The notes below the pieces were generated by a model. That model did no database searches and was not told the DNA's origin. It saw only the letters and a program-made list of their open reading frames with translations. Of a DNA stretch of 64,000 bases, positions 27,213 through 43,410 are shown one piece after another. How positions within the stretch are numbered: the first letter of the stretch is position 1; every line of letters starts with the position of its first letter. Made by a program: the position numbers and the translations under genes. This DNA comes from Eikenella sp. (GTDB lineage: Bacteria; Pseudomonadota; Gammaproteobacteria; Burkholderiales; Neisseriaceae): the NCBI GenBank assembly GCA_030528345.1, contig JAUMZB010000002.1:39456-103455 (forward strand), written 5' to 3'.

Positions 27213-27221
27213 GGCTTTCTT

Positions 27222-28106
27222 TCAAATCCGAATGTCGATTTCGGCGCGATTGACGGGCAATACCGGGAAAATGGCATTGATTTGGCCGGTACCGGAGGAA
27301 GGGAAATAAGGCGTGACCACCTCCACCTTGCCGCGGTAGCTGTCCCAACCCATGGCGCCCAGCAACATGGCCGTATCGTGCATCATGCCTTCGCCGTAGC
27401 ATTTTTCCGCATACATAGGCAGCATATTGCAAAAGGTCGGCCAGTCGCCGCTTTCCCACAGCTTGACCACATACTCGTCGACGGAACCCAAAAACGGATC
27501 CCAAATCTTGTGGAAAAACGCGTCGCCGCTGCCGTTTTGGGCAAAACGGTGCGACAAAGACCCGCTGGCAAAAATGGCCACATTGCCGGCGTATTTTTCT
27601 TCCACCGCCTGACGCACGGCCAGCCCCAGCTTGGCGCTGTCTGCCAGGCTGTGCACCTGGCACATGGCGGAAATCGAGATCACGCGGTAATGCTTGTCGC
27701 CGTTCATATAGCGCATCGGCACCAGCGTGCCGTATTCCGGCCCCAAGCTGGTATCGGCATGCGCGCGCGTGTGCACGCCCATGTGGTTGGCGCATTCGGC
27801 AATCATTGCCCCCAATTCTGGATTGCCGGGGTAGTCGTAGGGCATGTTTTTAATAAAGTGCGGCAACTCGTTGCTGGTATAAATGCCCTCAAAATGGGGC
27901 GCACAATTGATGTGGTAGCCGCTGTTCACCAGCCAATGGGTGTCGAACACCACAATGGTGTCCACCCCCAAGGCACGGCAACGGCGGTCGATTTCATGAT
28001 GGCCGTCGATCGCCTTTTGGCGGCAGCCTTTGTGCGGCCCGTCCAACTCAGATAAATACATGGAGGGCACATGGGTGATTTTGGCGGCCAAAGAGAGGGT
28101 ACCCAT
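27222..28106 (-). CDS. hpaD: 3,4-dihydroxyphenylacetate 2,3-dioxygenase (LigB-type extradiol dioxygenase)
   Basis: 294 aa from MGTLSLAAKITHVPSMY, with HpaD/LigB class III extradiol dioxygenase similarity. Confidence 0.85.
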   Translation of the reverse strand: MGTLSLAAKITHVPSMYLSELDGPHKGCRQKAIDGHHEIDRRCRALGVDTIVVFDTHWLVNSGYHINCAPHFEGIYTSNELPHFIKNMPYDYPGNPELGAMIAECANHMGVHTRAHADTSLGPEYGTLVPMRYMNGDKHYRVISISAMCQVHSLADSAKLGLAVRQAVEEKYAGNVAIFASGSLSHRFAQNGSGDAFFHKIWDPFLGSVDEYVVKLWESGDWPTFCNMLPMYAEKCYGEGMMHDTAMLLGAMGWDSYRGKVEVVTPYFPSSGTGQINAIFPVLPVNRAEIDIRI

Positions 28107-28107
28107 T

Positions 28108-29562
28108 TCACACCCCCCAGCGCGGAATCGGGTGGCTGCCGTAAGAGACGGCCACGTTTTTGGCTTCGCAGAAGGCTTCGTAGCTGTAATGATTGCCTTC
28201 GCGGCCGGTGCCGGAGGCTTTGGTGCCGCCGAAGGGCTGGCGCAAGTCGCGCACATTCTGGCTGTTGACAAAAGTCATGCCCGCATCGATGGCTTTGGCC
28301 AGGCGCAACATGCGGCCGGTGTTTTCCGTCCATAAATAAGACGACAGGCCATAAGGGGTATCGTTGGCAATCTGTAGCGCCTCTTCTTCGGTTTTAAAAG
28401 GAATAATGCACGGCACCGGTCCGAAAATTTCGTCCTGGGCGATGCTCATTTTGTTGTCGACATCGGCAAACACCGTGGGCGCCACCCAGAAGCCGTCTTT
28501 AAATTCGGGCGCCACTTCGGGCGTGTGGCCGCCCAACACCATGCGCGCCCCTTCGCGCTGGCCGGCTTCGATATAGCCGGTCACTTTCTGCCAGTGCGCC
28601 TGGCTGATCATGGGGCCGATAATGGTTTGCGGGTCTTGCGGATCGCCCAGCGTCAATTTGGCGGCGCGCGCAACAAAATCGGCCACGAATTTGTCGTAAA
28701 TGCTGCGTTCCACCAAAATGCGGGAGCCGGCGGTGCAGCGTTGGCCGTTATTGGAGAAAATCATGAATAAGGCGGCATCCAGCGCCCGTTCGTAATCGGC
28801 ATCCGCAAAAATGATGAACGGTGATTTGCCGCCCAATTCCATGGAGAATTTTTTCAGGCCGGCCGCACGGATGATGCGCTCGCCGGTAACCGTGGAGCCG
28901 GTAAAGGAGATGGCGCGCACATCGGGGTGCGACACCAGAGGCTCGCCGGCCTCCGTGCCGTAACCGTGCACCAGATTGAAGACCCCGTCGGGCACGCCTG
29001 CTTCTTGGATCAATTCCCCCAAGCGGGTGACGGTCATGGGCGAGAGCTCCGACATTTTCATGACTGCGGTATTGCCCAAAGCCAAGCAGGGCGCCGTTTT
29101 CCAGGTAGCCGTCATAAACGGCACATTCCACGGCGAAATCAGGGCGCAAACGCCCACCGGCCGCCATAGGGTGTAGTTGAGGTGGCCGGTATCCGAATCA
29201 TAGGTTTCGCCGTGCTGGTGTTGCATCAGCTCGGCAAAATAGTAGAAATTGTCGGCCGCGCGCGGAATCAGGGCTTTTTGGGTTTGGCCGATGACCTGGC
29301 CGCAGTCCTCGGTTTCCATGGCCGCCAGCTCGGGGACGTTTTTCACAATCAAATCGCCCACATTGCGCATCAGACGCGCGCGCTCTTTGGCCGGGGTGGC
29401 CGCCCAAGCCGGGAAGGCCGCCTTGGCTGCGGCAACGGCCGCATTCACTTCTTTGCGCCCGCCACGGGCGGCATGGGCAATCACTTTGCCGGTGGCCGGG
29501 TTGATAACTGCAAATGTTTCCGGGCTCTCTACCTGCCGGCCATTGATTAAATGCTTGATCAT
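28108..29562 (-). CDS. hpaE: 5-carboxymethyl-2-hydroxymuconate semialdehyde dehydrogenase
   Basis: 484 aa from MIKHLINGRQVESPETFAVINPATG. ALDH superfamily, positioned between hpaG and hpaD as in hpa operons. Confidence 0.85.
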   Translation of the reverse strand: MIKHLINGRQVESPETFAVINPATGKVIAHAARGGRKEVNAAVAAAKAAFPAWAATPAKERARLMRNVGDLIVKNVPELAAMETEDCGQVIGQTQKALIPRAADNFYYFAELMQHQHGETYDSDTGHLNYTLWRPVGVCALISPWNVPFMTATWKTAPCLALGNTAVMKMSELSPMTVTRLGELIQEAGVPDGVFNLVHGYGTEAGEPLVSHPDVRAISFTGSTVTGERIIRAAGLKKFSMELGGKSPFIIFADADYERALDAALFMIFSNNGQRCTAGSRILVERSIYDKFVADFVARAAKLTLGDPQDPQTIIGPMISQAHWQKVTGYIEAGQREGARMVLGGHTPEVAPEFKDGFWVAPTVFADVDNKMSIAQDEIFGPVPCIIPFKTEEEALQIANDTPYGLSSYLWTENTGRMLRLAKAIDAGMTFVNSQNVRDLRQPFGGTKASGTGREGNHYSYEAFCEAKNVAVSYGSHPIPRWGV

Positions 29563-29590
29563 AGGGTTACCCTTGTTGTGAATAGATGTA

Positions 29591-31045
29591 TTATGCGTGC
29601 TGGCTGAAATAGTGCGCATCATCGGCAATGGTGTTGCGCAAAACGCCCAAACCTTCGATTTCGGTTTCCACCACATCGCCGGGCCGCACATCGGCCAGCC
29701 CCTCCGGCGTACCGGTCAGAATGATGTCGCCCGGCTGCAGGGTCATGATGGAAGACAGATACGCCACCAGGTCATAAACACTGAAAATCATGTCGCGGGT
29801 GCTGCCCTGCTGGGTGGTTTTGCCATTGACGCGGGTGGTCAGGGCCAGCGCCATCGGGTCGTCAATCTGGTCGGCGCGGGTCAGCCAGGGGCCGATGGGG
29901 GTGGCGTGATCGCGGTTTTTCACCCGCAAATTGGGGCGGTAATAGTTTTCCAGATAATCACGAATGGCATAGTCGTTGACCACGGTATAGCCCAAAATGT
30001 AGTCTTTGGCGGTTTCACGGCTGACATTGCGCGCGGTTTTGCCGATGACCACCGCCAATTCGCATTCATAATGCATGTATTCAACGCCGTCCGGGCGGCG
30101 GGTCAGCGCCTGATGCCCCGTCAGTGTATTGGCGCCTTTTAAAAACACCAGCGGTGTTTCCGGCGCTTTAAAAGCCAGCTCTTTGGCGTGGTCGGCATAA
30201 TTGAGCCCCAAGGCGAATACCGTCCCGGCAGCCAGCGGCGGCAACCATTCCACCGCCGTTGCGGCAAACAGCCGTCCGTCGGCCGTGGCCACTTGGCCGT
30301 CTGCTGCCGGGGTTACCGTGTGGATTTGGCCGTTGATGCGCACACGACCCATGCGGGGCGCGTGCATGCTCAAGCGGTGTTCATGTGTGCATACGGGCGG
30401 GGCAGGCGGGCTGAGGGTGAAATCCAGCGCCCCCAAGCCTTTGGCGGTGATGCGCACCTCATCGGCCGCAGCCGCTTGGCAGGCCTGATACGGCACGCCC
30501 ATCAACAAGACATCGCCTGCATGCAGCGTCATAAACTCGGTCACATCGGCCAACAGCTGTGCCGCATCACGCGACAAATCCGCCAAGCTGCGCGCGCTGA
30601 GCGCCTGACCGTTTACCGCCGTATGAATGCACACATCTTGCAAATCGCCCACCGCCGCCAAGGTTTGTACCTCGCCCAGCAGCAAAGAGCCGTCGAAACA
30701 TTTTTCACGCACCGCCGGCCGGTAATAGCTGTCATGCGGCACGCTTAAATCCACGGCCAAAGCCACGCCCGCCAGCGCTTCCAGCGCCTGTTCCCGACTC
30801 AGGCGGCGGGCGGTTTTGCCCAGCACCAGCGCCACGGTGGCACCCACTTCCAGCGCCTCCGCGCCCGCAGGCAAAACCACCACGCCCGAGGTATTGACGG
30901 TGTTGGCGGGCTTGATATACAGCACCGGCGCTTGGGGCGGCGCCTGATAGGGCGCGGCTGTCAATTGCCCGCCCAAATCGGCCAGGCTTTGCCGGTCATT
31001 TAAAATAAGGCCATAAATGGTGCGCTGAACGCCATTGTGTTGCAT
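29591..31045 (-). CDS. hpaG: bifunctional 2-hydroxyhepta-2,4-diene-1,7-dioate isomerase / 5-oxopent-3-ene-1,2,5-tricarboxylate decarboxylase (two FAH domains)
   Basis: 484 aa. N-terminus RTIYGLILNDRQSL...APPQAPVLYIKPANTV aligns with E. coli HpaG, and the duplicated FAH fold is present. Confidence 0.85.
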   Translation of the reverse strand: MQHNGVQRTIYGLILNDRQSLADLGGQLTAAPYQAPPQAPVLYIKPANTVNTSGVVVLPAGAEALEVGATVALVLGKTARRLSREQALEALAGVALAVDLSVPHDSYYRPAVREKCFDGSLLLGEVQTLAAVGDLQDVCIHTAVNGQALSARSLADLSRDAAQLLADVTEFMTLHAGDVLLMGVPYQACQAAAADEVRITAKGLGALDFTLSPPAPPVCTHEHRLSMHAPRMGRVRINGQIHTVTPAADGQVATADGRLFAATAVEWLPPLAAGTVFALGLNYADHAKELAFKAPETPLVFLKGANTLTGHQALTRRPDGVEYMHYECELAVVIGKTARNVSRETAKDYILGYTVVNDYAIRDYLENYYRPNLRVKNRDHATPIGPWLTRADQIDDPMALALTTRVNGKTTQQGSTRDMIFSVYDLVAYLSSIMTLQPGDIILTGTPEGLADVRPGDVVETEIEGLGVLRNTIADDAHYFSQHA

Positions 31046-31210
31046 AGGTTTTCCATTTCTGTTGGCACGGCGATGCGCCGTTCAATCTGCCCGCGCCCTA
31101 CCCGAGCCAAACGCCTGCTACCGTGTTTTCAGGTAGCCTGCGCGATGGCCGGGCGTGGTGCCAGGGCATACCGTTTAGGGGTGTGTTGAGCGGTTTGCAC
31201 GTCTGCCGGT

Positions 31211-32635
31211 TTAGGCAGACTTATGAATGTGCACGGTTTGGATAGAAGTGAATTCTTCCAGGCCGACGGCGCCAAATTCGGCGCCGAAACCGGATTGTTT
31301 CACGCCGCCAAAAGGCGCGTTGGGCTGAATGGCGCCGTGGTGGTTGACCCAGGCGCTGCCGCATTCCAGCCGTTGCGCCAACGCTTGGGCGGCCTCGATA
31401 TTGCTCGACCAAACAGAGCCGCCCAAACCGTAAGCGCTGCGGTTGGCGCGCTGCAATACTTCCTCAACATCACTAAATTGGATAATGGGCAAAATCGGGC
31501 CGAACTGTTCTTCATCTACCAAGCGCGCGCCGTCGCTGATGTTGCCCACCAAGGTGATGGGGTAAAAATAGCCGCTGTCATCCACTATCTCGCCGCCGCA
31601 CAGGAAATGGGCGCCGCCAGCGCGGGCGTCTTCGGCCAGCGCTTGCACAATGTCAAGCTGTTTGGCGTTTTGCAGGGGGCCAAAATCGCTGTCTTCCTCC
31701 AGGCCGTTACCCGTTTTGACGGATTGGGCAATGCCAACCAAGGCGGCACACAAACGCTCATACACCGATTCGTGCACATACAGCCGTTTCAAAGCAGCAC
31801 AGGTTTGGCCGTTATTGATAAAAGCGGTGGCAAAAATCTTGGGCGCAATGGCTTCGATATCGGCGTCGGCCAGCACAATGCCGGCATCGTTGCCGCCCAA
31901 TTCCAGCGTGAGGCGTTTCAAATTGGCGCTGGCATTTTGCATCACCGACCGCCCGGTGGGGCTGGAGCCGGTAAACACCACTTTGTCGATGTCCGGATGC
32001 GCCGCAATGGCCGCACCGATGTCGCCTTTGCCGGACACGATGTTCAGCACGCCGGGCGGCAAAATGTCTTTGGCCAGACGGGCCAGCTTCAGCACCGTCA
32101 AAGGCGTCAGCTCGGAAGGCTTGAGCACCACGGTATTGCCCGTGAGCAGAGCCGGAACGGCGTGCCAAATGCTGATCATCAGCGGGTAGTTCCACGGCGT
32201 AATCGAGCCGACCACACCCAAGGGCTTGCGGTGAACCTCTATCCGCAACGCTGCGTCGTCCTGAATCACGGCGGGCTGCAATTCATAATCACAGGTGCCG
32301 CGTATCCAAGCCAAAGTGCCGCCCAGCTCAAAACCGGCGCCCATGCCGAAAAAGCCTTTCAGCGGCTTGCCTTGCTCCTGGGTGAGCGTGGCGGCCAAAT
32401 CGTCCGCCGCCGCTTCCAAAGCGTCGGCCAAAGCCAGCAAACGGCTTTTACGCTCGGCATAAGCCAGCGCCGACCAAGCCGGGAATGCGGCGCGCGCGGC
32501 GGCCACCGCCTCATCCAGCTGCGCCAGGCTCGCCTGGGGCGCTTGCGCAATCACGGCCTTGGTAGCCGGGTTGATCACGTCAAAAGTATGGGCGCCGTCC
32601 AGCAGTTGCCCGTTGATCAGCATTTGGTAATTCAT
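31211..32635 (-). CDS. NAD(P)-dependent aldehyde dehydrogenase (candidate aryl-acetaldehyde dehydrogenase, FeaB-like role)
   Basis: 474 aa in the ALDH superfamily (MNYQMLINGQLL...). Heads the hpaG-E-D-F-H-I gene string on the same strand. Confidence 0.8.
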   Translation of the reverse strand: MNYQMLINGQLLDGAHTFDVINPATKAVIAQAPQASLAQLDEAVAAARAAFPAWSALAYAERKSRLLALADALEAAADDLAATLTQEQGKPLKGFFGMGAGFELGGTLAWIRGTCDYELQPAVIQDDAALRIEVHRKPLGVVGSITPWNYPLMISIWHAVPALLTGNTVVLKPSELTPLTVLKLARLAKDILPPGVLNIVSGKGDIGAAIAAHPDIDKVVFTGSSPTGRSVMQNASANLKRLTLELGGNDAGIVLADADIEAIAPKIFATAFINNGQTCAALKRLYVHESVYERLCAALVGIAQSVKTGNGLEEDSDFGPLQNAKQLDIVQALAEDARAGGAHFLCGGEIVDDSGYFYPITLVGNISDGARLVDEEQFGPILPIIQFSDVEEVLQRANRSAYGLGGSVWSSNIEAAQALAQRLECGSAWVNHHGAIQPNAPFGGVKQSGFGAEFGAVGLEEFTSIQTVHIHKSA

Positions 32636-32752
32636 CGTCTCTATCTCCTTCTTGATTGGAATGGCCGATTGCCTGCCCGCGTCACAGCCTTGCCGGCCGA
32701 AGCCTCCCCTTCGCCACAGAAAAATTCGCAGATGTGGGACAGGGGCAATTCA

Positions 32753-32903
32753 GACTGAGACCTTTGCAAAACCCCCATCTGCGGCGCATTTCTGCGTTGC
32801 GTGCTGCTCGCTCGCTTGCCTATCGTGTGATATGTCTGCGCTCGCTGCGCTGCTACGCCTTGAACTGCATCCACATCTGAGGGTTTTGCAAAGGTCTCAG
32901 ACT
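32753..32903. repeat. MITE-like repeat, family A (about 150 bp, opposite orientation)
   Basis: ctgagacctttgcaaaaccccc...gggttttgcaaaggtctcag terminal inverted repeats. Confidence 0.65.
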
Positions 32904-32943
32904 GGATATGGGTTGCAATCCTTCTATTTTTTACGATTTTCTT

Positions 32944-33107
32944 AGAACCTGTTCAAAGTCTTCTTGCGCAGCGGTTTTTCGAGGCAAAAACCGCAGATGC
33001 AAGGCGAAAATGCGCGCAAGATTGAACATCTTGCAAGTATTTTCAACGCAGCAGATGCGGGATTTTGACCGGAAATACCGCCGCAACGAAGACTTTGAAC
33101 AGGTTCT
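32944..33107. repeat. MITE-like repeat, family B (about 165 bp, TIR agaacctgttcaaagtcttc / gaagactttgaacaggttct)
   Basis: A near-identical copy lies at 50018-50201, and partial or diverged copies at 38905-38972, 39620-39860 and 24181-24240. Confidence 0.65.
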
Positions 33108-33372
33108 TATTGAAAAGATGGCGCAATGCAATGCGCTTGGTAGGCAGGCGACGGCATAGCCGCATCGCTTAGCAAGCATCCATACAACACTAATATATTA
33201 GCATTTGAAGTGTGCGTCAATGGCTTTGTCGGTTTGGCCGGCTTGTGGCCTGCCGTTTCATCATTGACACCAGGCATGTTGCGGATTGGTTTTCAGGTAG
33301 CCTGAATTCGATGGCCAACAAACCGCCTGCTGACGAAGGTGCGTTGTTAGGCGGTTTGCTGGCCGGGGCGGC

Positions 33373-34770
33373 TTACGGTTTGTTCTCTGTTTGGGCGGAG
33401 GGGAGGGGCTCGCGCTCAAACAAACCTTTTTTCATCACCAATTTCACCCACAAGGCCGACAATACCACCACCACCAACAACAGGCTGCCGGTCATGGTGT
33501 AAACCGTTTGCGTCATTTCCGGGGTGGGCGAATTATTGATAAAGAGATAGATCATGCTGGCAATGCCCAAGATTTGCAGCACGGGATACATCGGGGTTTT
33601 ATAGGGGCGGGCATGATGGGGGGCAATTTTGCGCAGAATCATCAAATCCAGGTGGGAGATGGCATAGGCCAGTACCCAGGTTGCCGCGGCGGCAATCAGT
33701 AAAGTGATGATGGTTTCTACGTTGCTGCCCAAAATCAAGGTCGGCAATAGGGTGATGCCGCCCATAAACAAGATGGCCACCCAAGGCGTTTTGAATTTGG
33801 GATGGATTTTTTTAAACACGCCCAATGCCTGGCCGTTTTCCGCCATGCCGTAGAGCATGCGCGATACGCTGGCCAATACGGTATTGACCGTGCTGCCGCT
33901 GGCGGTTAAGCACACCACGGCCAACACCCATTTCGAAGACTCGCCGAATACGGCGATAAAGTAGTCGAAATGCGGTACCGGCGAATTGGTCAGGGTTTCG
34001 CGGCTGATATAGGTGCCGGCGCCCAAGGCCAGTAAGGCATAAATGCCGAAGATCACGAAAGCGCCGATAAACATGGAGCGCGGAATGTCGCGGGCAGGGC
34101 TTTTCGACTCCTCAATCAGCGGGCACACAAATTCCAAGCCGAAATAAGCCCACATGCCCAAACCCAACAGCGCCAGCATGCTGCCGTCTATCGCGCCCCA
34201 ATCGGCAAACGGAGTGTGCGGCGGCGGCACCGGCGCCCCCGTCTGGCTGATGGCCACCACGCTGATTACGGCCAAAAACACCAACATCACATAAGTCAGA
34301 AAACTTTGCACATTGGCGAAAATATCCGTACCCAAAATATTCAGCAAGGTAAACAGGCCAACCACGGCAATCACCACCACAGTGGGCGAAAAGACACCGG
34401 GGAATAAGACATTGAGCACTTCGCCCACCAGCATCACTTCGGCCGACAAGCCGAACATGGTCAGCATGATATAGCCGGTCATGGTGGCCAAAATGGCCGG
34501 GAAATGCCCCATGGCCATTTCTGTGTAAGTACTCAGGCTGCCGGCTTTGGGGAACATCAGCGACAGTTCCGCAAAGGTGGAGGCATTGCACAGAGCGATA
34601 ATCAGGCCGATCACCAGCACCAGTATGAAGTCGGTGCCGCCGTAGCCCACGCCCTGCAACACAGACACAATAGGGCCTTGCCCCACCACCAGCCCCACTG
34701 CGATGGCAAGCAGACTGCCAAATTTTAATAGTCGCTTGAATTTGCTGTTTTCAGCATTTGCATTGCTCAT
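33373..34770 (-). CDS. APC-superfamily amino acid / aromatic amine permease
   Basis: 465 aa with 12 TM helices. Amino acid permease motifs (GSLLAIAVGLVVGQG..., FAELSLMFPKAGS). Confidence 0.8.
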   Translation of the reverse strand: MSNANAENSKFKRLLKFGSLLAIAVGLVVGQGPIVSVLQGVGYGGTDFILVLVIGLIIALCNASTFAELSLMFPKAGSLSTYTEMAMGHFPAILATMTGYIMLTMFGLSAEVMLVGEVLNVLFPGVFSPTVVVIAVVGLFTLLNILGTDIFANVQSFLTYVMLVFLAVISVVAISQTGAPVPPPHTPFADWGAIDGSMLALLGLGMWAYFGLEFVCPLIEESKSPARDIPRSMFIGAFVIFGIYALLALGAGTYISRETLTNSPVPHFDYFIAVFGESSKWVLAVVCLTASGSTVNTVLASVSRMLYGMAENGQALGVFKKIHPKFKTPWVAILFMGGITLLPTLILGSNVETIITLLIAAAATWVLAYAISHLDLMILRKIAPHHARPYKTPMYPVLQILGIASMIYLFINNSPTPEMTQTVYTMTGSLLLVVVVLSALWVKLVMKKGLFEREPLPSAQTENKP

Positions 34771-35152
34771 GGTTCATTCCTCTGTAGGTTGCGGATGATT
34801 GTTATTGGGATAAAGGGGTTGTTTCGATACCGAAGCACGGGGCAGATTCCGGAATGTGTGTCTGCCGATATATGTCTTCGGTGTTTCCGGCCAGCATCCC
34901 GGGACTGCTGCGTTGTGCTCAAAACGGCAGGGGAATGCCGTCAAGGTGCTCAATTTTGCGTGCGCACCCCGCAGCGACAGATTTGCACAAAACCGTCTTT
35001 TAAACAGACAGTTGGACAAATGCCGAGAAGCTGCTTGTGAAAATAATACTAATATATTCCTAAAAAGGCAAACATTAATTTACATGTGCCGTCGAGACCA
35101 TGCGGATGTGTGCTTGGAGCGGGGAGCGTGCTTATCCTGCAAATTGGCAAAC

Positions 35153-35340
35153 CTGAGATCTTGACCCTCCGTCTGCGGCGTATTTTTGCGTTGTGTGTTG
35201 ATGCCGGTGTGGGTATGGCATGCCTGCTTGCCCATCTGATGGACGGAGCGGTCGCGCAGGAGTGTTCGATGATCATGCTTGCTGTGCTGCTGCGCCTTGA
35301 ACTGCATCCTCATCCGGAAGTTGGGCAAAGGTCTCAAGAT
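35153..35340. repeat. MITE-like repeat, family A (full-length copy)
   Basis: Termini acctgagatcttgac... / ...gcaaaggtctcaagat. Confidence 0.6.
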
Positions 35341-35624
35341 CTCAAACGGCATCAACGCTGTTCTGGCCGTCTTGCCTGCCGGCGATCCGGTGGGCTGTCC
35401 GGTCTGCGGTTTGGGTACAGCGGGGCATTATCGACAGCCCTCGATGCAAGCGGCTGATGGGCATTTTGCCGGTTTGCTTGAGCGGACAAGGCGTCGCTTG
35501 CTAATTTGCAAATATATTAGTAATATGGAGGCAGAAAAATATGGGGATAAGTATTTATCTTTGATTTTAAAGGAAAACATTATCCTTTCTTCTTGCTGCA
35601 ATTGAGTGTAAAGGAAAAAGAATC

Positions 35625-37502
35625 ATGCAATTTCATCATCACGGTTATGTTTCAACCAATCCGAGAGTGCAGGCGGCGCAAGGGACAGGCGTTAACCGCC
35701 CCGACGATTTGCCGGATGTGATGGATGTGTTGATTGTCGGCTCCGGGCCGGCCGGCATGCTGTTGGCCGCCCAGCTGTCCCAATACCCGAGCATTGTGAC
35801 CCGCATCATTGAAAAACGGAACGGGCGTTTGGAAATCGGGCAGGCAGACGGCATTCAGGCGCGCAGCGTGGAAACTTTCCAAGCGTTCGGTTTTGCCGAG
35901 GCCATTACCCAAGAGGCTTATCGAATTTGCGAGATGAATTTTTGGGCGCCTTCCAAGACCGATCCCGGCCACATTGTCCGCACCCACCGTACTCTGGATG
36001 ATGAGCATGGCGTCAGCGAGTTTCCCCACTTGATTGTCAATCAAGCCCGGGTTTTGGATTATTTCGCCGATGTCGCCAAAAATTCGCCTGCCCGCATTGA
36101 ACCGGACTATGGGGTGGAATTTGTGGGTTTGCAGGTGGGCGAAGGGGAATATCCGGTGTCGGTGACCATCCGCTACACCGCCGGAAGTAGGGAAGGGGAA
36201 AAACGCACTGTTCGGGCCAAATACGTTGTGGGCTGTGACGGCGCCCGCAGCGCTGTCCGCCAAGCCATTGGCCGCCATCATATCGGTGGCGTTTCTCTGC
36301 ATGCTTGGGGGGTGATGGATATTTTGGCGGTGACGGATTTTCCCGACATCCGTAAAAAATGTGCCATTCAGTCGCATGAAAACGGCAGTATTTTGCTGAT
36401 TCCCCGCGAAGGCGGACATCTGTTCCGCATGTATGTGGATTTGGGCGATGTGGCGGAAAACGACAACCATGCCGTCCGCCAGACGCCGCTGGCCGACATC
36501 ATCGCCAAAGCCAATGCCATCATCCATCCCTACCAATTGGAAGTCAAAGATGTGGCGTGGTGGTCGGTCTATGAGGTGGGTCACCGGGTCACCGATAAAT
36601 TTGACGACGTGGATGCAGGTAAAGAGGGGGAACGGTTGCCGCATGTGTTTATTTGCGGCGACGCCTGCCATACGCACAGCGCCAAAGCCGGGCAGGGCAT
36701 GAATGTATCCATGCAGGACGGTTTTAATTTGGGCTGGAAGTTGGGATCGGTGCTGACCGGACGCAGCCCGGAATCATTGCTGGCCACTTATTCGGCCGAA
36801 CGGCAGATTGTGGCGCAAGACCTGATTAACTTTGATAAAGAGTGGTCCAGTTTGATGGCCAAAAAGCCGGAAGAGTTTGACAGCCCGGACGAACTCAGCG
36901 AGTACTATGTGAGAACGGCCGAGTTTCCGGCAGGCTTTATGACCGAATACGCGCCTTCCATGATTATCGGCAGTACCGATCATCAGGCGCTGGCCAAAGG
37001 TTTTCCGGTGGGCAAGCGCTTTAAGTCGGCGCCGGTGGTGCGGATCGCCGATGCGGTGCCGGCGCATTTGGGTCATCATGCCAAAGCGGATGGCCGGTGG
37101 CGTATTTATGCTTTTGCCGATATCGATAAAACCCGTTTGCACGCATTGGCGCAATGGCTGGGGCACGATAAGGCTTCCCCGTTGCTGACATACACGCCGA
37201 AAGATGCTGATCTGGACAGTGTATTCGATGTCAAGGCGATTTACCGGCAGCCGCATTACGAGATTGACATAAGGGATATTCCGGACGTTTTCCTACCACG
37301 GGTAGGCCCCTTCCAATTGGTTGATTACGAAAAAATCTATGCCGCCGAGGAAGGACATTCCATTTTCGAGCTGCGCGAAATCGATTCGCAAGGCGCTTTG
37401 GTGGTGGTGCGTCCGGATCAATACGTTGCACACGTACTGCCGCTTACCGCCACCGACGAGTTGGCTGCTTTCTTTAAGCAAAATATGCTGGCTTGCCGTT
37501 AA
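35625..37502 (+). CDS. FAD-dependent aromatic-ring monooxygenase, phenol 2-monooxygenase (PheA/TfdB/MobA) family, with a C-terminal thioredoxin-like dimerisation domain
   Basis: 625 aa. GXGXXG (LIVGSGPAGM), DG motif and GDACHTHSAKAGQGMN FAD motif. RBS aggaaa upstream. Confidence 0.8.
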   Translation: MQFHHHGYVSTNPRVQAAQGTGVNRPDDLPDVMDVLIVGSGPAGMLLAAQLSQYPSIVTRIIEKRNGRLEIGQADGIQARSVETFQAFGFAEAITQEAYRICEMNFWAPSKTDPGHIVRTHRTLDDEHGVSEFPHLIVNQARVLDYFADVAKNSPARIEPDYGVEFVGLQVGEGEYPVSVTIRYTAGSREGEKRTVRAKYVVGCDGARSAVRQAIGRHHIGGVSLHAWGVMDILAVTDFPDIRKKCAIQSHENGSILLIPREGGHLFRMYVDLGDVAENDNHAVRQTPLADIIAKANAIIHPYQLEVKDVAWWSVYEVGHRVTDKFDDVDAGKEGERLPHVFICGDACHTHSAKAGQGMNVSMQDGFNLGWKLGSVLTGRSPESLLATYSAERQIVAQDLINFDKEWSSLMAKKPEEFDSPDELSEYYVRTAEFPAGFMTEYAPSMIIGSTDHQALAKGFPVGKRFKSAPVVRIADAVPAHLGHHAKADGRWRIYAFADIDKTRLHALAQWLGHDKASPLLTYTPKDADLDSVFDVKAIYRQPHYEIDIRDIPDVFLPRVGPFQLVDYEKIYAAEEGHSIFELREIDSQGALVVVRPDQYVAHVLPLTATDELAAFFKQNMLACR

Positions 37503-37574
37503 GCAGATGACTTTGCCTTGAGTTCGGGTTTCACGACAAACCCACCCATGCAGATACGCCGGAGAAACAGACCC

Positions 37575-38876
37575 ATGCACATTGATGAAGCACCCACTTA
37601 TTATACGGCCACGCGGCGCTACCACCTGTCCTTTCCTTCCCTGGAAACCGATATCCAAACAGAAGTGGTGATTATCGGCGGCGGCTTTTCAGGTATCCAC
37701 ACGGCTTTGGAGCTGGCCGAGCAGGGCGTAACGGACACGGTTGTGTTGGAAGCCCGTTACTTGGGTTACGGCGGTACCAGCCGCAATGGCGGACAAGTCA
37801 TGGCCGGCATCGGGCATGATATCGACGCCATTAAGGCCGACGTGGGCGAAGACGGATTGAAGGCCATTTTCTCGTTAAGCGACATGGGGCCCGAAATTAT
37901 GCGTGAGCGCATCAAGCGCTACGATATCGATGCCGATTTTCACAGCGGCTACGGTTACATGGCCTACAACGAGCGGCAGGCGAAAACATTAAGAGCGTGG
38001 GAGAAGGAGTTTAAATCACTGAACTCTCCCCATGAAATCCGCTACCTGGAAGGCAAGGAAGTGGGCGAGATTATCGGCTCGGAAGTTTATCGCGCCGCCT
38101 TGCTGCACCGCGGCGGCGGCCATGTGCACTCGCTCAATCTCTTATTGGGCGAAGCCAAAGCACTCACGGAAATCTACGGTGCCCGCATTTTTGAGTACAG
38201 CCCGGCATTGCAGGTTACCTATGGCGACCGAATTGAAGTCAGAACCGCCAAAGGCATTATCCGTGCCAAAAAACTGGTTTGGGCGGTAGACGGCTTCAAC
38301 AACCGTATCGAACCGGAAATTCACGGCCGTACCATCAATGTTTATGCTTTCAACTCGGTCACTGAGCCGTTAAGCGAAGCGCTGATTCAGCGCATCAGCC
38401 CGATTCGCGGCGCCTACAGCGACATCCGCCCGGTTATCAATTATTACCGCGTAACCCCGGACAACCGTCTGATGTTCGGCTCATCCACCGGCTACATCGA
38501 ATATATGCCCTCGGATTTGAAAGCGTGGAATAAAAAATTGATGGTAGAAGTATTCCCCTATCTGAAAGACGTGAATATCGATTTGGCATGGGGCGGCCCC
38601 ATGGCGGCCTCGCGTAATCTTTTCCCCCAAATCGGCACCTTGCAAAGCCGGCCCAATGTTTTTTATGTGCAAGGTTATTCGGGCTTCGGCGTCACCCCCA
38701 GCCAAATCATCTGCAAAATTTTGGCCGAAGGCATTCTGGGCGGCTCCGAACGCTATCGCTTGCTCAGCAGCATCCGCCATGCCGAGATTGCCCATAAAGA
38801 CCGTTACCGTGCCCTGCTGGTGAGTTTGGGCAAAATCATGCACCAGACTTCAGGTTATTGGCACGGCCGCAGTTAA
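37575..38876 (+). CDS. FAD-dependent oxidoreductase, DAO family (gamma-glutamylputrescine oxidase PuuB/OrdL-like amine oxidase)
   Basis: 433 aa from MHIDEAP. VVIIGGGFSGIHTALELAEQG is a dinucleotide-binding motif. Confidence 0.75.
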   Translation: MHIDEAPTYYTATRRYHLSFPSLETDIQTEVVIIGGGFSGIHTALELAEQGVTDTVVLEARYLGYGGTSRNGGQVMAGIGHDIDAIKADVGEDGLKAIFSLSDMGPEIMRERIKRYDIDADFHSGYGYMAYNERQAKTLRAWEKEFKSLNSPHEIRYLEGKEVGEIIGSEVYRAALLHRGGGHVHSLNLLLGEAKALTEIYGARIFEYSPALQVTYGDRIEVRTAKGIIRAKKLVWAVDGFNNRIEPEIHGRTINVYAFNSVTEPLSEALIQRISPIRGAYSDIRPVINYYRVTPDNRLMFGSSTGYIEYMPSDLKAWNKKLMVEVFPYLKDVNIDLAWGGPMAASRNLFPQIGTLQSRPNVFYVQGYSGFGVTPSQIICKILAEGILGGSERYRLLSSIRHAEIAHKDRYRALLVSLGKIMHQTSGYWHGRS

Positions 38877-39061: not shown

Positions 39062-39433
39062 ATGAGTCTGACACCGCTGAAAAAAGGCATGACCCTGCAA
39101 GAACTGGATTTGATTGGCCCGTTAACCGTTTTGGGCGGTGAAATCTTGGAAGGCGGAGAAGTGAAAGCCTATGCCAAAGGCACCTATGGCGATCCAGGGG
39201 CGCCGATCAGCGCCGGCTATTTCGGTACTAATAAGGGTCGCTACCGCCTGGTTTACCCGTTTAGCGAACAAGCAACCATTATGCAGGGGGAAGTACGCAT
39301 TACGGATGAAAGCACCGGCGAAACCCACCATTTCAAAGCCGGAGATTCCTGGTTTATCACCAAAGGCACCTCCACCGTATGGGAAGTATTGACCGACCAC
39401 TACACCAAGCACTATCTGTCGTTCAACGAATAG
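39062..39433 (+). CDS. cupin-domain protein (cupin_3/DUF861-like)
   Basis: 123 aa. The two-His cupin motif region (GEVRITDESTGETHHFKAGDSWFI) is present. Confidence 0.55.
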   Translation: MSLTPLKKGMTLQELDLIGPLTVLGGEILEGGEVKAYAKGTYGDPGAPISAGYFGTNKGRYRLVYPFSEQATIMQGEVRITDESTGETHHFKAGDSWFITKGTSTVWEVLTDHYTKHYLSFNE

Positions 39434-39435
39434 CC

Positions 39436-39533
39436 CGAGACCGTTGCAAACCCTCCAGATGCGGATGCAGTTCAAGGCGTAGCAGCGCACAACGCAGAAA
39501 TGCGCCGAAGATGGGGGTTTTGCAAAGGTCTCG
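39436..39533. repeat. MITE-like repeat, family A (short form, about 98 bp, internal deletion)
   Basis: gagaccgttgcaaaccctccagatgcgg...gggggttttgcaaaggtctc. Starts immediately after the cupin stop codon. Confidence 0.6.
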
Positions 39534-39619
39534 CCCCTCTGCAAATCTGAAAACAAACCCGTGTACCGGCCCGCCCGGCCGTGCGGCTAGCATTGACTGC
39601 AAGCCGTTACCGTCTTAGG

Positions 39620-39860
39620 GCGTGTCGTCATAATGCTTGAGAAGCGGTTTTTTTAGCTTCGCAAGTCCGCTGCGCTACCGAGGCAAAACCCGCAGCTGCA
39701 AGGCTCACTCGAAGAGGGCGGTTTTACACGCTACGCCAGTCAAACCAGCCAGCGCAGCAAGATGGGACATCTTGCGGGCATTTTCTGCGTCCCCTTGGGG
39801 GATAACGCTCCAACTACGGGTTTTGACCAAAAATACCGCCGCAACGCTTTGTGAGGACAC
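39620..39860. repeat. family B-related repeat (long, diverged variant)
   Basis: Shares the ggtttttcgaggcaaaacccgcag...gggattttgaccaaaaataccgccgcaacg core with the 32944-33107 and 50018-50201 copies. Confidence 0.5.
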
Positions 39861-40659
39861 ACTCTAGAGTCTCATCCCAAAGCGAATAAACCTTTTTGCC
39901 GCCGCTGTGGTCGCCCATATCAAATTCCGGCGCCGCCACGCCCAGCTTGGCGGCTTCGCGGCGGTAAAAGTCAAGGCGGGACGGCTGCGGGGTTTCCACC
40001 ACATTGCGGACTACCCTGCCGGGCGTGTCTTCGGTGGCGGCAAGCAGGGCGGCCACGGCGCGGTCGCGGTGCAGCATATTGGCCGGCGCATGGGGCGCAC
40101 GGGCGGGCTGGCGGCGCAACAGGCTGTACAGCGGATGGCGTTCGGCGGCATACAGGCCGCCCAAACGCAGCAGGCTCACATTCGGCACCGCGCTCGCCCA
40201 CATCAGCTGCTCGGCGGCCAACACTTTGCGCGCCGACTCGGTATCGGGCTGCGGCGGTGTGTCTTCATCGCAATCGCGCACCGCGCCGCCGTATACGCTG
40301 ATGCTGCTGCCGTACACGATATGGGCTACCTGAAAACGCTCGGCCAAGGCCAGCCAGCGGCCGATCACATCTGCATAATCCGCCACCGCCGAAGGCGGCA
40401 GCAGGCAGAACCAGGTGGCTTTGCCGGCCCAATGTTCTGCCCAAAACGGCTGCGTCCATACTTCGGGCGCGTTGAGGTCGGCGACCGCCAAAGCAATCGG
40501 CAGACAGACATCGTCGGAAGTCAGCCTACGTTTCAGCGCCGCCACCGCGCGGCCTTGCTGATAGAGCGCTTCGGCCAGCGGGCGGCCCAAATGGCCGAAA
40601 CCGAGTATTGCCGCGCCGTTCAGGCCGTTGCTTCGCGCGTCCATGCCGGCTGAATCCAT
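39814..40659 (-). CDS. NAD(P)-binding Rossmann-fold protein (NAD-dependent epimerase/dehydratase-like)
   Basis: AAILGFGHLGRPLAEALYQQG N-terminal dinucleotide motif. The last ~15 codons and the stop lie inside the family B repeat. Start is uncertain (40659 or 40644) and the gene overlaps LOG by about 40 bp. Confidence 0.55.
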   Translation of the reverse strand: MDSAGMDARSNGLNGAAILGFGHLGRPLAEALYQQGRAVAALKRRLTSDDVCLPIALAVADLNAPEVWTQPFWAEHWAGKATWFCLLPPSAVADYADVIGRWLALAERFQVAHIVYGSSISVYGGAVRDCDEDTPPQPDTESARKVLAAEQLMWASAVPNVSLLRLGGLYAAERHPLYSLLRRQPARAPHAPANMLHRDRAVAALLAATEDTPGRVVRNVVETPQPSRLDFYRREAAKLGVAAPEFDMGDHSGGKKVYSLWDETLECVLTKRCGGIFGQNP

Positions 40660-41225
40660 TTGCCCGCCTCCTGATAACGGTAAGCCGCCATTTCGGCCAA
40701 TAAACCCTCTGCGGTATCGGCCACACACAACAGCCCCACATTGGCCGGCGGCATAAAGCCCTGCTCGGCGGTGTGGCGCAGCAACGCCAGCAGCGGATCA
40801 AAAAAACCGCCGCTGTTGAGCACGCCGACAGGCTTGTTGTGCAGGCGCAGTTGGGCGGAAGACAGCACTTCAAACAATTCCTCATAAGTGCCCAGGCCGC
40901 CGGGCAGGGCCACAAAGGCATCGGCCAGCGCAATCATTTTCAGACGGCGGCTGGTCATGTCTTCGGTTTCGATCAGCTCGGTCAGCCCGCCGTGCGCCAT
41001 TTCTTTTTCGCGCAGAAACACCGGAATCACGCCGGTCACTTCGCCGCCGGCGGCCAGCGCCGCATCGGCCACCGCGCCCATCAGACCGATACGGCCGCCG
41101 CCATACACCAAACGGCTGCCACGGCGGGCAATCGCTTGGCCCATGGCCTGCGCCGCTTCGTAATAGGCGCGGTTTTCGCCCAAATTGGAGCCGCAATACA
41201 CGGCAATGTGCCTCATTTCGTTCAT
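40620..41225 (-). CDS. LOG-family cytokinin riboside 5'-monophosphate phosphoribohydrolase (TIGR00730)
   Basis: 201 aa. RHIAVYCGSN..., LVYGGGRIGLMG and the PGGLGTYEELFE (PGGxGTxxE) motif are LOG signatures. Confidence 0.8.
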   Translation of the reverse strand: MNEMRHIAVYCGSNLGENRAYYEAAQAMGQAIARRGSRLVYGGGRIGLMGAVADAALAAGGEVTGVIPVFLREKEMAHGGLTELIETEDMTSRRLKMIALADAFVALPGGLGTYEELFEVLSSAQLRLHNKPVGVLNSGGFFDPLLALLRHTAEQGFMPPANVGLLCVADTAEGLLAEMAAYRYQEAGKWIQPAWTREATA

Positions 41226-41895: not shown

Positions 41896-43410
41896 ATGCC
41901 CTTACCCGCCGCCCTGCTTGCCGCCGCGCTCAAGCGCTTTCAGGTAGCCGCCCGCTGCCCCGAAGCCGCCCAACAACAGATTCTGCAACAGAATGCCGCC
42001 AGCCGTTTCGGCCGCCGGCACGGCTTTGCCGATACGGCCGACTACGCCGCCTTCGCCCGCCAAGTACCGGTTCGCCGCTACGAAGACTGCCGCGCCGACA
42101 TCGACGCCCTGGCCGCCGGCGGCAGCGGCCTGCTCACCGCCGAGCCGGTGATCCAGTTTGAAGAAACCGGCGGCTCCTCCGGCGGCGCCAAGCTGATTCC
42201 CTATACCGATAGCCTCTTGGCCGCTTTCCGTCGCGGCGTGCTGCCTTGGCTGGCCGATTTGGCGCAGCACCGCCCGCAAGCTTTTGCCGGCCGCCTGTTT
42301 TTCATCATCAGCCCGGCCGGCCGCCGCCGCCATCATACCGCAGGCGGCACGCCCATCGGCAGCGGCAGCGATTTGGCCTACTTCGGCGAAGAAACCGGCG
42401 CGGCACTGGCCGCGCACACCCTGTTCCAGCCCGAGCTCGCCCAAGCCCGCAGTGCCGCCGAATGGCAGTGGCACAGCGCCCGCCTGTTGCTCTCCGCCGC
42501 CGATTTGAGCCTGATTTCGGTGTGGAGCCCCACCCTGCTGCTGGCCATTTTCCGCACCCTGGTCGCCGAACAGGACAGCCTGATCGCCAGCCTGAGCGAC
42601 TCCCGCCGCCGCCAAGCCGCCCAACACGCCTTGCACGGCGGCAGCTTGAATGCGCGTCTGTTGTGGCCGCAGCTGGACACCGTGAGCTGCTGGAACAGCC
42701 ACACCGCCGCCGCGCCCGCCGCCGAACTGCAAACCCTGCTGCCCGATGTGCACCTACAAGGCAAAGGCCTGCTCGCCACCGAAGCGGTCAGCAGCCTGCC
42801 CTTTTCAGGTAGCCCGCACCCCTTATTGGCGGTGGACAGCCACTTCTACGAATTTGCCGCCGCCGACGGCAGCGTCCGCCTCGCCCACCAACTGCACAGC
42901 GGGCAAGACTACCGCCTGATCGTGACCACCCAAGGCGGCCTCTACCGCTACGACACCGGCGACCGCGTGGCCGTACACGGTTTTTCCGGCACCCTGCCCC
43001 GGCTCGAATTCATCGGCCGCGACCATCTCACCAGCGATTTATGCGGCGAAAAACTCACCGAAGCCTTTGTACGCCGCGCCATGCTGGCGGTGGATAAGCG
43101 GCTGCCCGAACAGGCACTGCTGCAAGGCGTGGCCGCCAATCCGCCGCATTACCGCCTGCTGCTGCCCGAGCACGCGCCCCGCCCGCCGCAACTGGCCGCC
43201 CGCCTCGACGAGGCGCTGGCCGCCAACCCGCAATACGCCTATGCCCGCCGCATCGGCCAGCTCGCCCCCTTGGCAGCCGTCCCCCTGCCCGACCCGCACG
43301 CCTACGCCGCCACCCTCCACCGCGCCGGCCAACGCTTGGGTACGCGCAAAATCCCCTTGTTATTGCCGCCGTTTACCCCCGAAGCCGCCTCCCGCCCCCA
43401 GGCTACCTGA
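41896..43410 (+). CDS. GH3-family protein (auxin-responsive GH3-like acyl acid amido synthetase, ANL superfamily)
   Basis: 504 aa with the GH3 N-terminal pattern (...FEETGGSSGGAKLIPYT...) and length. Family call is by motif recollection. Confidence 0.7.
   Translation: MPLPAALLAAALKRFQVAARCPEAAQQQILQQNAASRFGRRHGFADTADYAAFARQVPVRRYEDCRADIDALAAGGSGLLTAEPVIQFEETGGSSGGAKLIPYTDSLLAAFRRGVLPWLADLAQHRPQAFAGRLFFIISPAGRRRHHTAGGTPIGSGSDLAYFGEETGAALAAHTLFQPELAQARSAAEWQWHSARLLLSAADLSLISVWSPTLLLAIFRTLVAEQDSLIASLSDSRRRQAAQHALHGGSLNARLLWPQLDTVSCWNSHTAAAPAAELQTLLPDVHLQGKGLLATEAVSSLPFSGSPHPLLAVDSHFYEFAAADGSVRLAHQLHSGQDYRLIVTTQGGLYRYDTGDRVAVHGFSGTLPRLEFIGRDHLTSDLCGEKLTEAFVRRAMLAVDKRLPEQALLQGVAANPPHYRLLLPEHAPRPPQLAARLDEALAANPQYAYARRIGQLAPLAAVPLPDPHAYAATLHRAGQRLGTRKIPLLLPPFTPEAASRPQAT

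Follow-up and report, generated by a model that had tools for sequence, protein, structure and literature searches.

The DNA described here is a stretch of 64,000 nucleotides from Eikenella sp. (contig JAUMZB010000002.1, positions 39,456 to 103,455), hereafter called the window and numbered from its first letter. Between 24.2 and 39.4 kb it carries a homoprotocatechuate (3,4-dihydroxyphenylacetate) meta-cleavage operon of the hpa type, together with genes for an aldehyde dehydrogenase (ALDH), an APC-superfamily permease, a flavoprotein monooxygenase, an FAD-dependent oxidase and a small cupin. The genes, and the region between the two divergent ones, are as follows.

24241-24669, minus strand: hpaR, MarR-family repressor (the mechanical open reading frame (ORF) reaches 24954, and homology begins at about 24669)
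25181-25978, minus strand: hpaI, 4-hydroxy-2-oxoheptanedioate aldolase (PF03328; 56% identity to E. coli HpaI)
25988-26923, minus strand: hpaH, 2-oxo-hept-4-ene-1,7-dioate hydratase (start probably at about 26800)
26820-27212, minus strand: hpaF, 5-carboxymethyl-2-hydroxymuconate isomerase (PF02962 CHMI, E 2.6e-42; 42% identity to E. coli HpaF)
27222-28106, minus strand: hpaD, LigB-type 3,4-dihydroxyphenylacetate 2,3-dioxygenase (mechanical ORF reaches 28271)
28108-29559, minus strand: hpaE, 5-carboxymethyl-2-hydroxymuconate semialdehyde dehydrogenase (mechanical ORF reaches 29691)
29591-31045, minus strand: hpaG, bifunctional isomerase/decarboxylase (TIGR02303 and TIGR02305 above cut-off; 46% identity to E. 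coli HpaG)
31211-32635, minus strand: NAD(P)-dependent ALDH, 474 residues (PF00171), first gene of the meta-cleavage transcription unit
33373-34770, minus strand: APC-superfamily permease, 465 residues (PF13520/PF00324)
34771-35624, no strand: divergent intergenic region of 854 bp between the permease and monooxygenase genes, presumed promoter region, with direct repeats D1/D2
35625-37502, plus strand: group A FAD monooxygenase, 625 residues (PF01494 and PF07976; PRK08294)
37575-38876, plus strand: PuuB-like DAO-family FAD oxidoreductase, 433 residues (PF01266), 72 bp downstream of the monooxygenase gene
39062-39433, plus strand: Cupin_3 (EutQ-like) small protein (PF05899, E 7e-20)

The meta-cleavage operon, hpaG-E-D-F-H-I-R, is complete in the window and orthologous to the hpa operon of E. 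coli. In a profile search of the window proteins, the NCBIfam equivalog cut-offs were passed by HpaG, HpaD (TIGR02298, 461.6 bits, cut-off 316; 65% identity to E. coli HpaD, alignment 27261-28106), HpaE (TIGR02299, 715.6 bits, cut-off 638; 64% identity), HpaH (TIGR02312, 445 bits, cut-off 351; 72% identity) and HpaR (TIGR02337, 139.7 bits, cut-off 121; 37% identity, alignment 24247-24669); HpaI scored 365.5 bits with TIGR02311, about 3 bits under the cut-off of 368.8. An initial annotation of this DNA had described the ALDH, the APC permease, the FAD monooxygenase and the PuuB/OrdL-like oxidase, and all four genes lie where it placed them, in families that Pfam confirms. The genes it listed for the cluster stand; hpaF and the Cupin_3 gene had been missed. 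It had also stressed the absence of HpaB and HpaC, which holds for the 64-kb window: tblastn queries with E. coli HpaB, HpaC, HpaX and HpaA found no match there (E <= 1e-3 / 1e-5), and neither did queries with TynA, FeaR, PuuA and PuuD.

The region from 24.2 to 39.4 kb is probably one catabolic unit for a tyramine-type aromatic amine, in which flavoenzymes would carry the amine to homoprotocatechuate, and the upstream enzyme set most likely replaces the classical HpaBC hydroxylase and copper amine oxidase. In this model the APC permease would import the amine, and the PuuB-like FAD enzyme (with its Cupin_3 partner) would oxidise the primary amine to an imine, the flavin being reoxidised by O2 or another acceptor; the imine would then hydrolyse to (4-)hydroxyphenylacetaldehyde and ammonia. 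The ALDH that heads the hpa operon would convert the aldehyde to hydroxyphenylacetate, and the MobA-like NAD(P)H/FAD monooxygenase would hydroxylate 4-hydroxyphenylacetate (4-HPA) at C3 and/or 3-hydroxyphenylacetate (3-HPA) at C4, giving 3,4-dihydroxyphenylacetate. From there HpaD-E-F-G-H-I would yield pyruvate and succinic semialdehyde, with HpaR as regulator. The order of the steps and all substrate assignments we infer from protein families and gene neighbourhoods. A funnel of this kind, from amine through aryl-acetaldehyde and aryl-acetate to 3,4-dihydroxyphenylacetate, had been proposed in the initial annotation; it gains support from gene neighbourhoods in many unrelated genomes, whereas the characterised relatives of the hydroxylase tell against it.

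The monooxygenase and its relatives

The monooxygenase scores 1015 bits with the NCBIfam model PRK08294 (cut-off 560). Among solved structures it is matched best not by a phenol or dichlorophenol hydroxylase but by 2DKH (residues 1-621, E 7e-201, 51% identity), the structure of MobA/MHBH, the 3-hydroxybenzoate 4-hydroxylase of Comamonas testosteroni. This match places the window protein, by sequence, among single-component enzymes of the MobA lineage. The earlier label of 'PheA/TfdB-type' was correct in calling it a single-component FAD monooxygenase with PF01494/PF07976, and was imprecise about the type.

The closer relatives of the window protein form a clade whose members are 65-92% identical to it and about 51% identical to MobA, and these recur beside hpa genes. 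When 87 loci encoding a clade member at >=60% identity were inspected, 43 proved to be hpa-linked, defined as having at least two hpa genes within 10 kb, and 13 of the other 44 lie on truncated contigs. The linkage recurs across Actinomycetota, Gammaproteobacteria and Betaproteobacteria. In Marinobacter, one strand carries hpaH-I-G1-G2-E, an AraC regulator gene (39% identity to E. coli HpaA), the gene for HpaR, an MFS transporter gene, hpaD and then the monooxygenase gene; neither HpaB nor HpaC is present in this hpa locus, and the monooxygenase occupies the position of hpaBC in E. coli. Psychrobacter has an hpaG-E-D-F-H-I-hpaR block followed by an APC permease gene divergent from the monooxygenase gene, a layout like that of the window, and in gammaproteobacterium L081 the genes for permease, monooxygenase, ALDH and DctPQM adjoin hpaR-I-H-F-D-E. 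In Microbacterium and on a Rathayibacter plasmid, the monooxygenase gene neighbours that of a thiamine-diphosphate enzyme and lies opposite a complete hpa operon whose HpaD is of VOC type. Rhodococcus fascians encodes the monooxygenase, an ALDH, an amino-acid permease and a class-III aminotransferase in that order, and plasmid pTC2 of Paenarthrobacter aurescens carries hpa genes, a putative succinic semialdehyde dehydrogenase (SSADH) gene, an ALDH gene named 'maoB/feaB', and genes for the monooxygenase, an amino-acid permease and a copper amine oxidase. The differing arrangements suggest that the hpa linkage is not one inherited synteny block and arose by repeated association.

This pattern bears directly on a different interpretation, namely that the monooxygenase is an ordinary 3-hydroxybenzoate 4-hydroxylase making protocatechuate for a pathway encoded elsewhere, and that its proximity to hpa reflects island clustering. 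Both characterised relatives of the monooxygenase have that activity, and the lower GC content at third codon positions (GC3) of the monooxygenase, oxidase and cupin genes compared with hpa (values below) suggests separate acquisition. Nevertheless, this interpretation seems unlikely in view of the company that the gene keeps. Protocatechuate-cleavage (pca/lig) genes were seen neither in the window nor in any hpa-linked locus, and the window monooxygenase gene has neither a pca/lig nor a MarR gene adjacent to it. The hpa linkage is recurrent in varied arrangements, which include an operonic position after hpaD together with an HpaA-like activator. As a control, five plasmid-borne MobA-group enzymes were inspected (57-63% identity to MobA and 48-57% to the window protein); a MarR gene is adjacent in all five and hpa neighbours are found in none. 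The MobA-group copy of Paracoccus versutus adjoins pcaQ-pobA-pcaDCHG, that of Novosphingobium KA1 lies near phthalate-to-protocatechuate genes, and the regulator of Comamonas mobA is likewise of MarR type. The family is thus divided by its gene company, which is of protocatechuate type in the MobA group and of homoprotocatechuate/tyramine type in the second clade.

The residues around the substrate are less discriminating. In MHBH, Asp75 and Tyr271 contact the substrate hydroxyl, His135 and Lys247 form salt bridges with the carboxylate, and Leu258 and Ile260 stack on the ring (PMC3546652). D75, H135, K247, L258, I260, Y271 and Y317 (MobA numbering) are invariant in 88 clade sequences, including the window protein. 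This invariance is a point in favour of a 3-hydroxybenzoate 4-hydroxylase, with the proviso that the conserved contact residues cannot tell benzoate from phenylacetate as substrate. Because the His135/Lys247 carboxylate clamp is invariant, they do argue for an aromatic acid and not an amine. The order of reactions might in principle be reversed, the monooxygenase converting tyramine to dopamine and the oxidase and ALDH then converting dopamine to 3,4-dihydroxyphenylacetate (DOPAC). Such a route would need no other genes, the DOPAC formed from dopamine is homoprotocatechuate, and the monooxygenase and oxidase genes are adjacent. However, hydroxylation of the amine is very improbable given the invariant salt-bridge pair and the many genomes that link the monooxygenase to hpa and an MFS/HpaA-like acid-sensing set without amine genes.

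Three further positions distinguish the hpa-linked clade from MobA. C246, A353 and G366 of the window protein (MobA numbering 248, 356 and 369) show at least 97% conservation across the hpa-linked clade, and MobA has V, P and S there; position 356 is proline in 4 of 5 other MobA-group enzymes sampled. All three are second-shell differences, and A356 stands in place of the 're-strand' proline beside the substrate-stacking Ala-Gly. As markers of a pocket specific for hydroxyphenylacetate, C248/A356/G369 were rejected, because an enzyme of Pseudarthrobacter phenanthrenivorans Sphe3 that is active on 3-hydroxybenzoate (3-HBA) has all three.

The Sphe3 enzyme, Asphe3_36590, was described in a 2026 paper as a 3-hydroxybenzoate 4-hydroxylase with a Km of 73 uM. 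Its gene is induced about 2000-fold on 3-HBA, and the enzyme has minor activity on 4-hydroxybenzoate (4-HBA) and gentisate and none on phenol. The substrate panel consisted of 3-HBA, 4-HBA, 2-HBA, gentisate, phthalate, protocatechuate and phenol; hydroxyphenylacetates lie outside this panel, which weakens the enzyme as an argument for a benzoate hydroxylase in the window. In the Sphe3 genome the protein is P0289 (634 residues, 4,250,414-bp chromosome), whose identity is 69% to the window enzyme and 85-86% to hpa-linked orthologues, among which it nests in a neighbour-joining tree that has no bootstrap support. The published Sphe3 quantitative PCR primers match Arthrobacter/Pseudarthrobacter loci with 0-2 mismatches and the exact 167-bp spacing. 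The primer matches, the identity and the nesting led to rejection of the idea that the Sphe3 hydroxylase is a paralogue separate from the hpa-linked Arthrobacter genes. Within 10 kb of the Sphe3 gene there are no hpa and no pca genes, an isolation that again suits the benzoate interpretation.

Weighing these data, the window monooxygenase is predicted to be a 3-/4-hydroxyphenylacetate hydroxylase that forms homoprotocatechuate. We infer that the second, hpa-linked clade supplies homoprotocatechuate from 3-HPA and/or 4-HPA; 3-HBA would then be an alternative substrate that is used well, and in Sphe3 the physiological one.

The amine side of the cluster

The oxidase aligns with E. coli PuuB over 400 residues at 35% identity (E 4e-82), and no close solved structure was found for it; the ATG at 37575 yields the 433-residue length common to all close homologues. 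The monooxygenase, oxidase and cupin genes are contiguous, with gaps of 72 and 186 bp, and their order is kept in a Neisseria relative whose monooxygenase is 92% identical. Oxidase orthologues with 58-82% identity occur in Paraburkholderia, Burkholderia, Comamonas, Acinetobacter, P. aeruginosa, Klebsiella, Salmonella, Pantoea, Erwinia and Sphingobium. In the window and in 9 of the 10 orthologous loci opened, the gene after that of the oxidase has about 120 codons; Erwinia persicina is the exception. Where checked, this gene encodes a Cupin_3 member or a protein 42-74% identical to the window Cupin_3 protein; a cupin follows the oxidase in Comamonas, Paraburkholderia, P. aeruginosa, Burkholderia, Klebsiella, Salmonella, Sphingobium and the Neisseria relative. 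Gene orders around the oxidase include the following.

Paraburkholderia ferrariae: ALDH (499 residues), AraC, porin, oxidase, cupin, adjoining hpaI-F-D-E
Comamonas: AraC, DUF3156, permease, then Phenol_MetA_deg porin, oxidase, cupin
Burkholderia FXe9: oxidase, cupin, ALDH, then LuxR and APC permease
Klebsiella aerogenes: feaB_2, then oxidase, cupin, APC, a few kb from an annotated monoamine-regulon regulator and atsBA
Salmonella Senftenberg: 'phenylacetaldehyde dehydrogenase', then oxidase, cupin, APC, DUF3156, LuxR
Erwinia persicina: oxidase, ALDH, regulator, APC, DUF3156, hpaR-hpaG-hpaE-hpaD
Sphingobium: hpa genes, gabD, two ALDHs, AraC, then oxidase, cupin, AraC, PobA-like monooxygenase

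This neighbourhood pattern fits oxidation of a free aromatic primary amine to an aryl-acetaldehyde, in replacement of copper amine oxidase, and the oxidase is accordingly named here as a predicted aromatic monoamine oxidase/dehydrogenase. The chemistry is plausible, because other DAO-family enzymes turn primary amines into aldehydes. A gamma-glutamylation (Puu/Pau) route was considered for the oxidase and rejected on the grounds that PuuA and PuuD are missing from the window; neither was found in the 10 orthologous oxidase loci inspected.

Other flavoenzymes also occur near hpa genes. The DAO-family gene that heads the hpa operon of Psychrobacter was rejected as an oxidase orthologue because its C-terminus is unrelated; it resembles the DAO/RidA/OCD set of L081. 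This second, unrelated DAO-family gene lies beside hpa genes in two gammaproteobacteria (L081 3521-8003 and L083 1-91), and in L081 it forms a set with genes for RidA, an OCD/mu-crystallin protein and a 506-residue ALDH. On the Sphingobium sp. TomTYG74 plasmid AP027342.1 (1189-20469, L095), the hpa cluster and the oxidase-cupin pair stand beside a PobA-like '4-hydroxybenzoate 3-monooxygenase', a candidate for a third and independent type of single-component hydroxyphenylacetate hydroxylase.

The ALDH reaches no NCBIfam equivalog. Its best scores are with aminobutyraldehyde dehydrogenase (452 bits) and StyD (420 bits), and it scores 341, 355 and 300 bits with SSADH models, all below cut-off. 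It is 38% identical to FeaB, a value that should be read against a FeaB-HpaE identity of about the same. The best structural match is PDB 8YEN, for which substrate information was sought and none was found. An SSADH function was considered because the ALDH heads the meta operon and because A. baumannii TH has an ssadh gene inside its hpa operon. It is disfavoured by the model scores and by the relationships of the protein in other genomes. In Sphingobium a 60% orthologue lies beside the AraC/oxidase-cupin genes, and gabD and an ALDH that is HpaE-like by position are also in the cluster; on pTC2 the window ALDH is 48.6% identical to 'maoB/feaB', 35.7% to the putative SSADH and 33% to HpaE. Orthologues of about 50% identity form a divergent pair with an amino-acid permease in Arthrobacter and with an AraC regulator in Nocardia, and a 70% orthologue directly follows the monooxygenase in L081. 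In sequence comparisons with clusters that encode all three types, the ALDH groups with the FeaB-labelled type and not with the SSADH-labelled or HpaE type. The Sphingobium, pTC2 and Arthrobacter/Nocardia observations favour a role as a predicted (hydroxy)phenylacetaldehyde dehydrogenase. The initial annotation had said that it would be contradicted if the closest characterised homologues of the monooxygenase were 3-hydroxybenzoate hydroxylases and the ALDH were unrelated to aryl-acetaldehydes. The first half describes what was found (MobA at 51%, Sphe3 at 69%); the FeaB-type grouping of the ALDH goes against the second.

For the permease, the best NCBIfam matches are generic amino-acid and ethanolamine permeases, below cut-off. 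Its 78% orthologue in the Psychrobacter hpa cluster is likewise encoded divergently beside the monooxygenase gene, and identity to the APC permeases encoded in enteric oxidase-cupin modules is about 30%. Substrates of the APC superfamily are amino acids, polyamines and organocations, not aromatic acids, and no aromatic-acid transporter (HpaX or MFS) was found in the window cluster; both facts fit an amine as the entry substrate, and the permease is predicted to import that amine. In the enteric and Comamonas oxidase modules (L094, L096, L097 and L087) a DUF3156 gene always flanks the APC permease gene, and no DUF3156 gene turned up among the window ORFs scanned (about 30 larger ones).

The amine-specific genes could also be read as bystanders. 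The hydroxylase alone would then feed hpa from imported hydroxyphenylacetate, the oxidase-cupin pair and the permease would serve an unrelated aliphatic amine or amino acid, and the ALDH would be an SSADH. The only characterised relative of the oxidase is indeed PuuB, and its homologues are annotated as gamma-glutamylputrescine oxidase; the P. aeruginosa oxidase-cupin pair has no aromatic neighbours within its 11.9-kb contig fragment; APC permeases usually carry amino acids or polyamines; and the position of the window ALDH at the head of the meta operon recalls the A. baumannii TH precedent. Such a division of labour is nonetheless quite unlikely. The window has no PuuA or PuuD to accompany a gamma-glutamyl oxidase and its cluster no HpaX or MFS protein to import an aromatic acid, and in at least six genera the oxidase-cupin genes keep company with FeaB-type ALDH, AraC, aromatic-type porins and hpa clusters. 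As for the ALDH, it scores lower with GabD/Sad models than with aryl- and amino-aldehyde dehydrogenase models, and in clusters with three ALDHs it matches the one that is neither the SSADH nor HpaE (60% in Sphingobium; 48.6% versus 35.7% on pTC2).

Several observations do weigh against a single amine-degrading unit with a hydroxyphenylacetate hydroxylase. About half of the clade loci lack hpa genes within 10 kb, evidence from gene neighbourhoods is correlative, and many of the actinobacterial loci are not independent. Every MobA ligand residue is conserved, so that a change of specificity is not marked anywhere in the sequence, and the sole biochemical data for the clade are those on the Sphe3 3-hydroxybenzoate 4-hydroxylase. 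The nearest characterised relative of the oxidase, PuuB, acts on a gamma-glutamylated aliphatic amine, and the permease offers no specific clue to its own substrate. In addition, the 7.3-kb deletion in strain 871 (see below) implies that the unit is dispensable.

Repeats, composition and surroundings of the cluster

Two further features border or interrupt the cluster.

21720-22724, minus strand: dusA, then two small ORFs before hpaR
32748-32907, no strand: repeat resembling a miniature inverted-repeat transposable element (MITE), with a 37-nt terminal inverted repeat, in the permease-ALDH spacer (inverted repeat I1)

The spacer between the ALDH and permease genes, which holds the MITE-like repeat, is 737 bp long. 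The divergent region at 34771-35624 contains short ORFs only (<=123 residues), and scans for promoters and terminators gave no more matches than in shuffled sequence. The MITE-like element is dispersed, about 150-190 nt long, with the terminal inverted repeat CTGAGACCTTTGCAAAACCC, which has 7 matches in the window against 0 expected. Besides the copy in the permease-ALDH spacer (32754-32901 by this measure), copies lie at 4104-4291 and 9168-9356, with a half copy at 39515-39535 and a diverged copy at about 35166-35336. Both spacers flanking the permease gene thus contain copies, and their positions differ between the window strain and Neisseria shayeganii 871, where copies are found at 2449-2593, 18919-19071 and 19231-19376 of the locus examined (L001).

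The 871 locus, on NZ_JH164926.1, encodes a monooxygenase 99% identical in protein sequence to that of the window, and its flanks have 85-97% nucleotide identity, which places the window in N. shayeganii or a very close relative. A 7.3-kb segment (window 26225-33547) is deleted there, with the junction at L001 7928/7929 and no run of N. The deletion takes most of hpaH, then hpaF, hpaD, hpaE, hpaG, the ALDH gene and the 3' end of the permease gene, and the strain 871 pathway appears broken. The cluster ends on the right with a segment of about 250 bp (window 39616-39870) that in strain 871 has an 82% copy at the left edge beside hpaR (L001 5702-5947) and no right-edge copy; it may be another mobile or recombinogenic repeat bounding the cluster.

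Base composition differs along the region. GC3 is 0.60-0.65 in the monooxygenase, oxidase and cupin genes, 0.69-0.72 in the hpa genes and 0.77-0.83 in flanking housekeeping genes, and these differences suggest stepwise acquisition. The cluster starts 1.5 kb from dusA, a gene described as a hotspot for the integration of genomic islands; no integrase gene was seen.

The other ORFs scanned against Pfam (about 30 of the larger ones in the window) are housekeeping genes or have no family match. Two ORFs with gene-typical GC3 have no Pfam match, 39814-40728 (minus strand, 304 residues) and 54514-55923 (minus strand, 469 residues); the former has no NCBIfam match either and is 94% conserved in strain 871. 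A LOG/'lysine decarboxylase'-family gene (40620-41225, minus strand) lies near a bacterial GH3-family (acyl-acid amido synthetase-like) gene (41896-43410, plus strand), which is followed by a TonB-dependent receptor gene (45202-47208).

Comparison with known systems

No description of a single-component HPA 3-hydroxylase, or of a hydroxyphenylacetate hydroxylase from the MobA family, was found in the searchable literature, which did not cover key subscription papers, so that a prior description is possible; the same holds, with the same limit, for a PuuB-like/cupin oxidase of aromatic amines such as tyramine. In the Arthrobacter arilaitensis genome paper, a 4-HPA 3-monooxygenase gene was not located despite growth on tyrosine and the presence of homoprotocatechuate-pathway genes. 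We tentatively suggest, as something that could well prove otherwise, that the MobA-like clade (named phenol 2-monooxygenase/3-hydroxybenzoate 4-monooxygenase) and the PuuB-like/Cupin_3 pair (its oxidase named gamma-glutamylputrescine oxidase or FAD-binding oxidoreductase) are two misnamed non-orthologous replacements in aromatic amine catabolism.

If this is correct, the MobA-like clade would comprise single-component 3-/4-HPA hydroxylases, including the enzyme missing from the Arthrobacter arilaitensis paper, and a gene would be assigned to the single-component route from hydroxyphenylacetate to homoprotocatechuate, an activity for which HpaBC were the only genes found described. The PuuB-like/Cupin_3 pair would be a flavin-dependent tyramine/dopamine oxidase or dehydrogenase standing in for copper amine oxidase, and would define a new family of flavin-dependent aromatic monoamine oxidases/dehydrogenases with an obligate-looking cupin partner. 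That family is present in host-associated Neisseria, Salmonella, Klebsiella, Acinetobacter and P. aeruginosa, which could meet tyramine or dopamine at mucosal surfaces. The automatic names of thousands of database proteins would be corrected (8000 relatives were scored). Biocatalysis, for example of hydroxytyrosol- or DOPAC-type products, would gain a compact NAD(P)H-dependent hydroxylase that forms catechols and needs no partner flavin reductase. Should the prediction fail, the monooxygenase is one more 3-hydroxybenzoate 4-hydroxylase, in a cluster that is a mosaic.

For the lower pathway a close parallel is the hpa cluster of E. coli W/C (hpaR, hpaGEDFHI, hpaX, hpaA and hpaBC), whose HpaG/E/D/F/H/I/R the window matches gene for gene at 37-72% identity. 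The combination of tynA-feaB-feaR with hpa in E. coli follows the same overall logic, from amine through aldehyde and aryl-acetate to homoprotocatechuate and meta cleavage. Unlike E. coli, the window has no HpaB/HpaC, HpaX/HpaA, TynA or FeaR, its ALDH is just 38% identical to FeaB, and its upper steps are assigned to unrelated flavoenzymes.

MobA and Asphe3_36590 share with the window monooxygenase the same three-domain group A flavoprotein architecture (51% and 69% identity) and the conserved contact residues. The MobA group differs in its company, being MarR-linked with one sampled member beside pca, whereas the window clade is linked to hpa and tyramine-type genes. The window clade also has C248, A356 and G369 near the pocket, and its predicted physiological substrate is hydroxyphenylacetate.

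PuuB (OrdL), the gamma-glutamylputrescine oxidase of E. coli, is a DAO-family FAD enzyme of the same type as the window oxidase, with presumed conversion of a primary amine to an aldehyde in common. In contrast to PuuB, the window oxidase is unaccompanied by the PuuA ligase and PuuD hydrolase, has a Cupin_3 partner in most loci, and has aromatic neighbours (FeaB-like ALDH, hpa, AraC) in place of polyamine genes.

A further counterpart is the hpa/amine island on pTC2 of Paenarthrobacter aurescens TC1, where an orthologous monooxygenase (67.5%), an ALDH (48.6%) and an amino-acid permease are encoded beside a homoprotocatechuate operon. It differs from the window in having an annotated copper-containing amine oxidase, which would deaminate the amine, a VOC-type HpaD and a separate putative SSADH.

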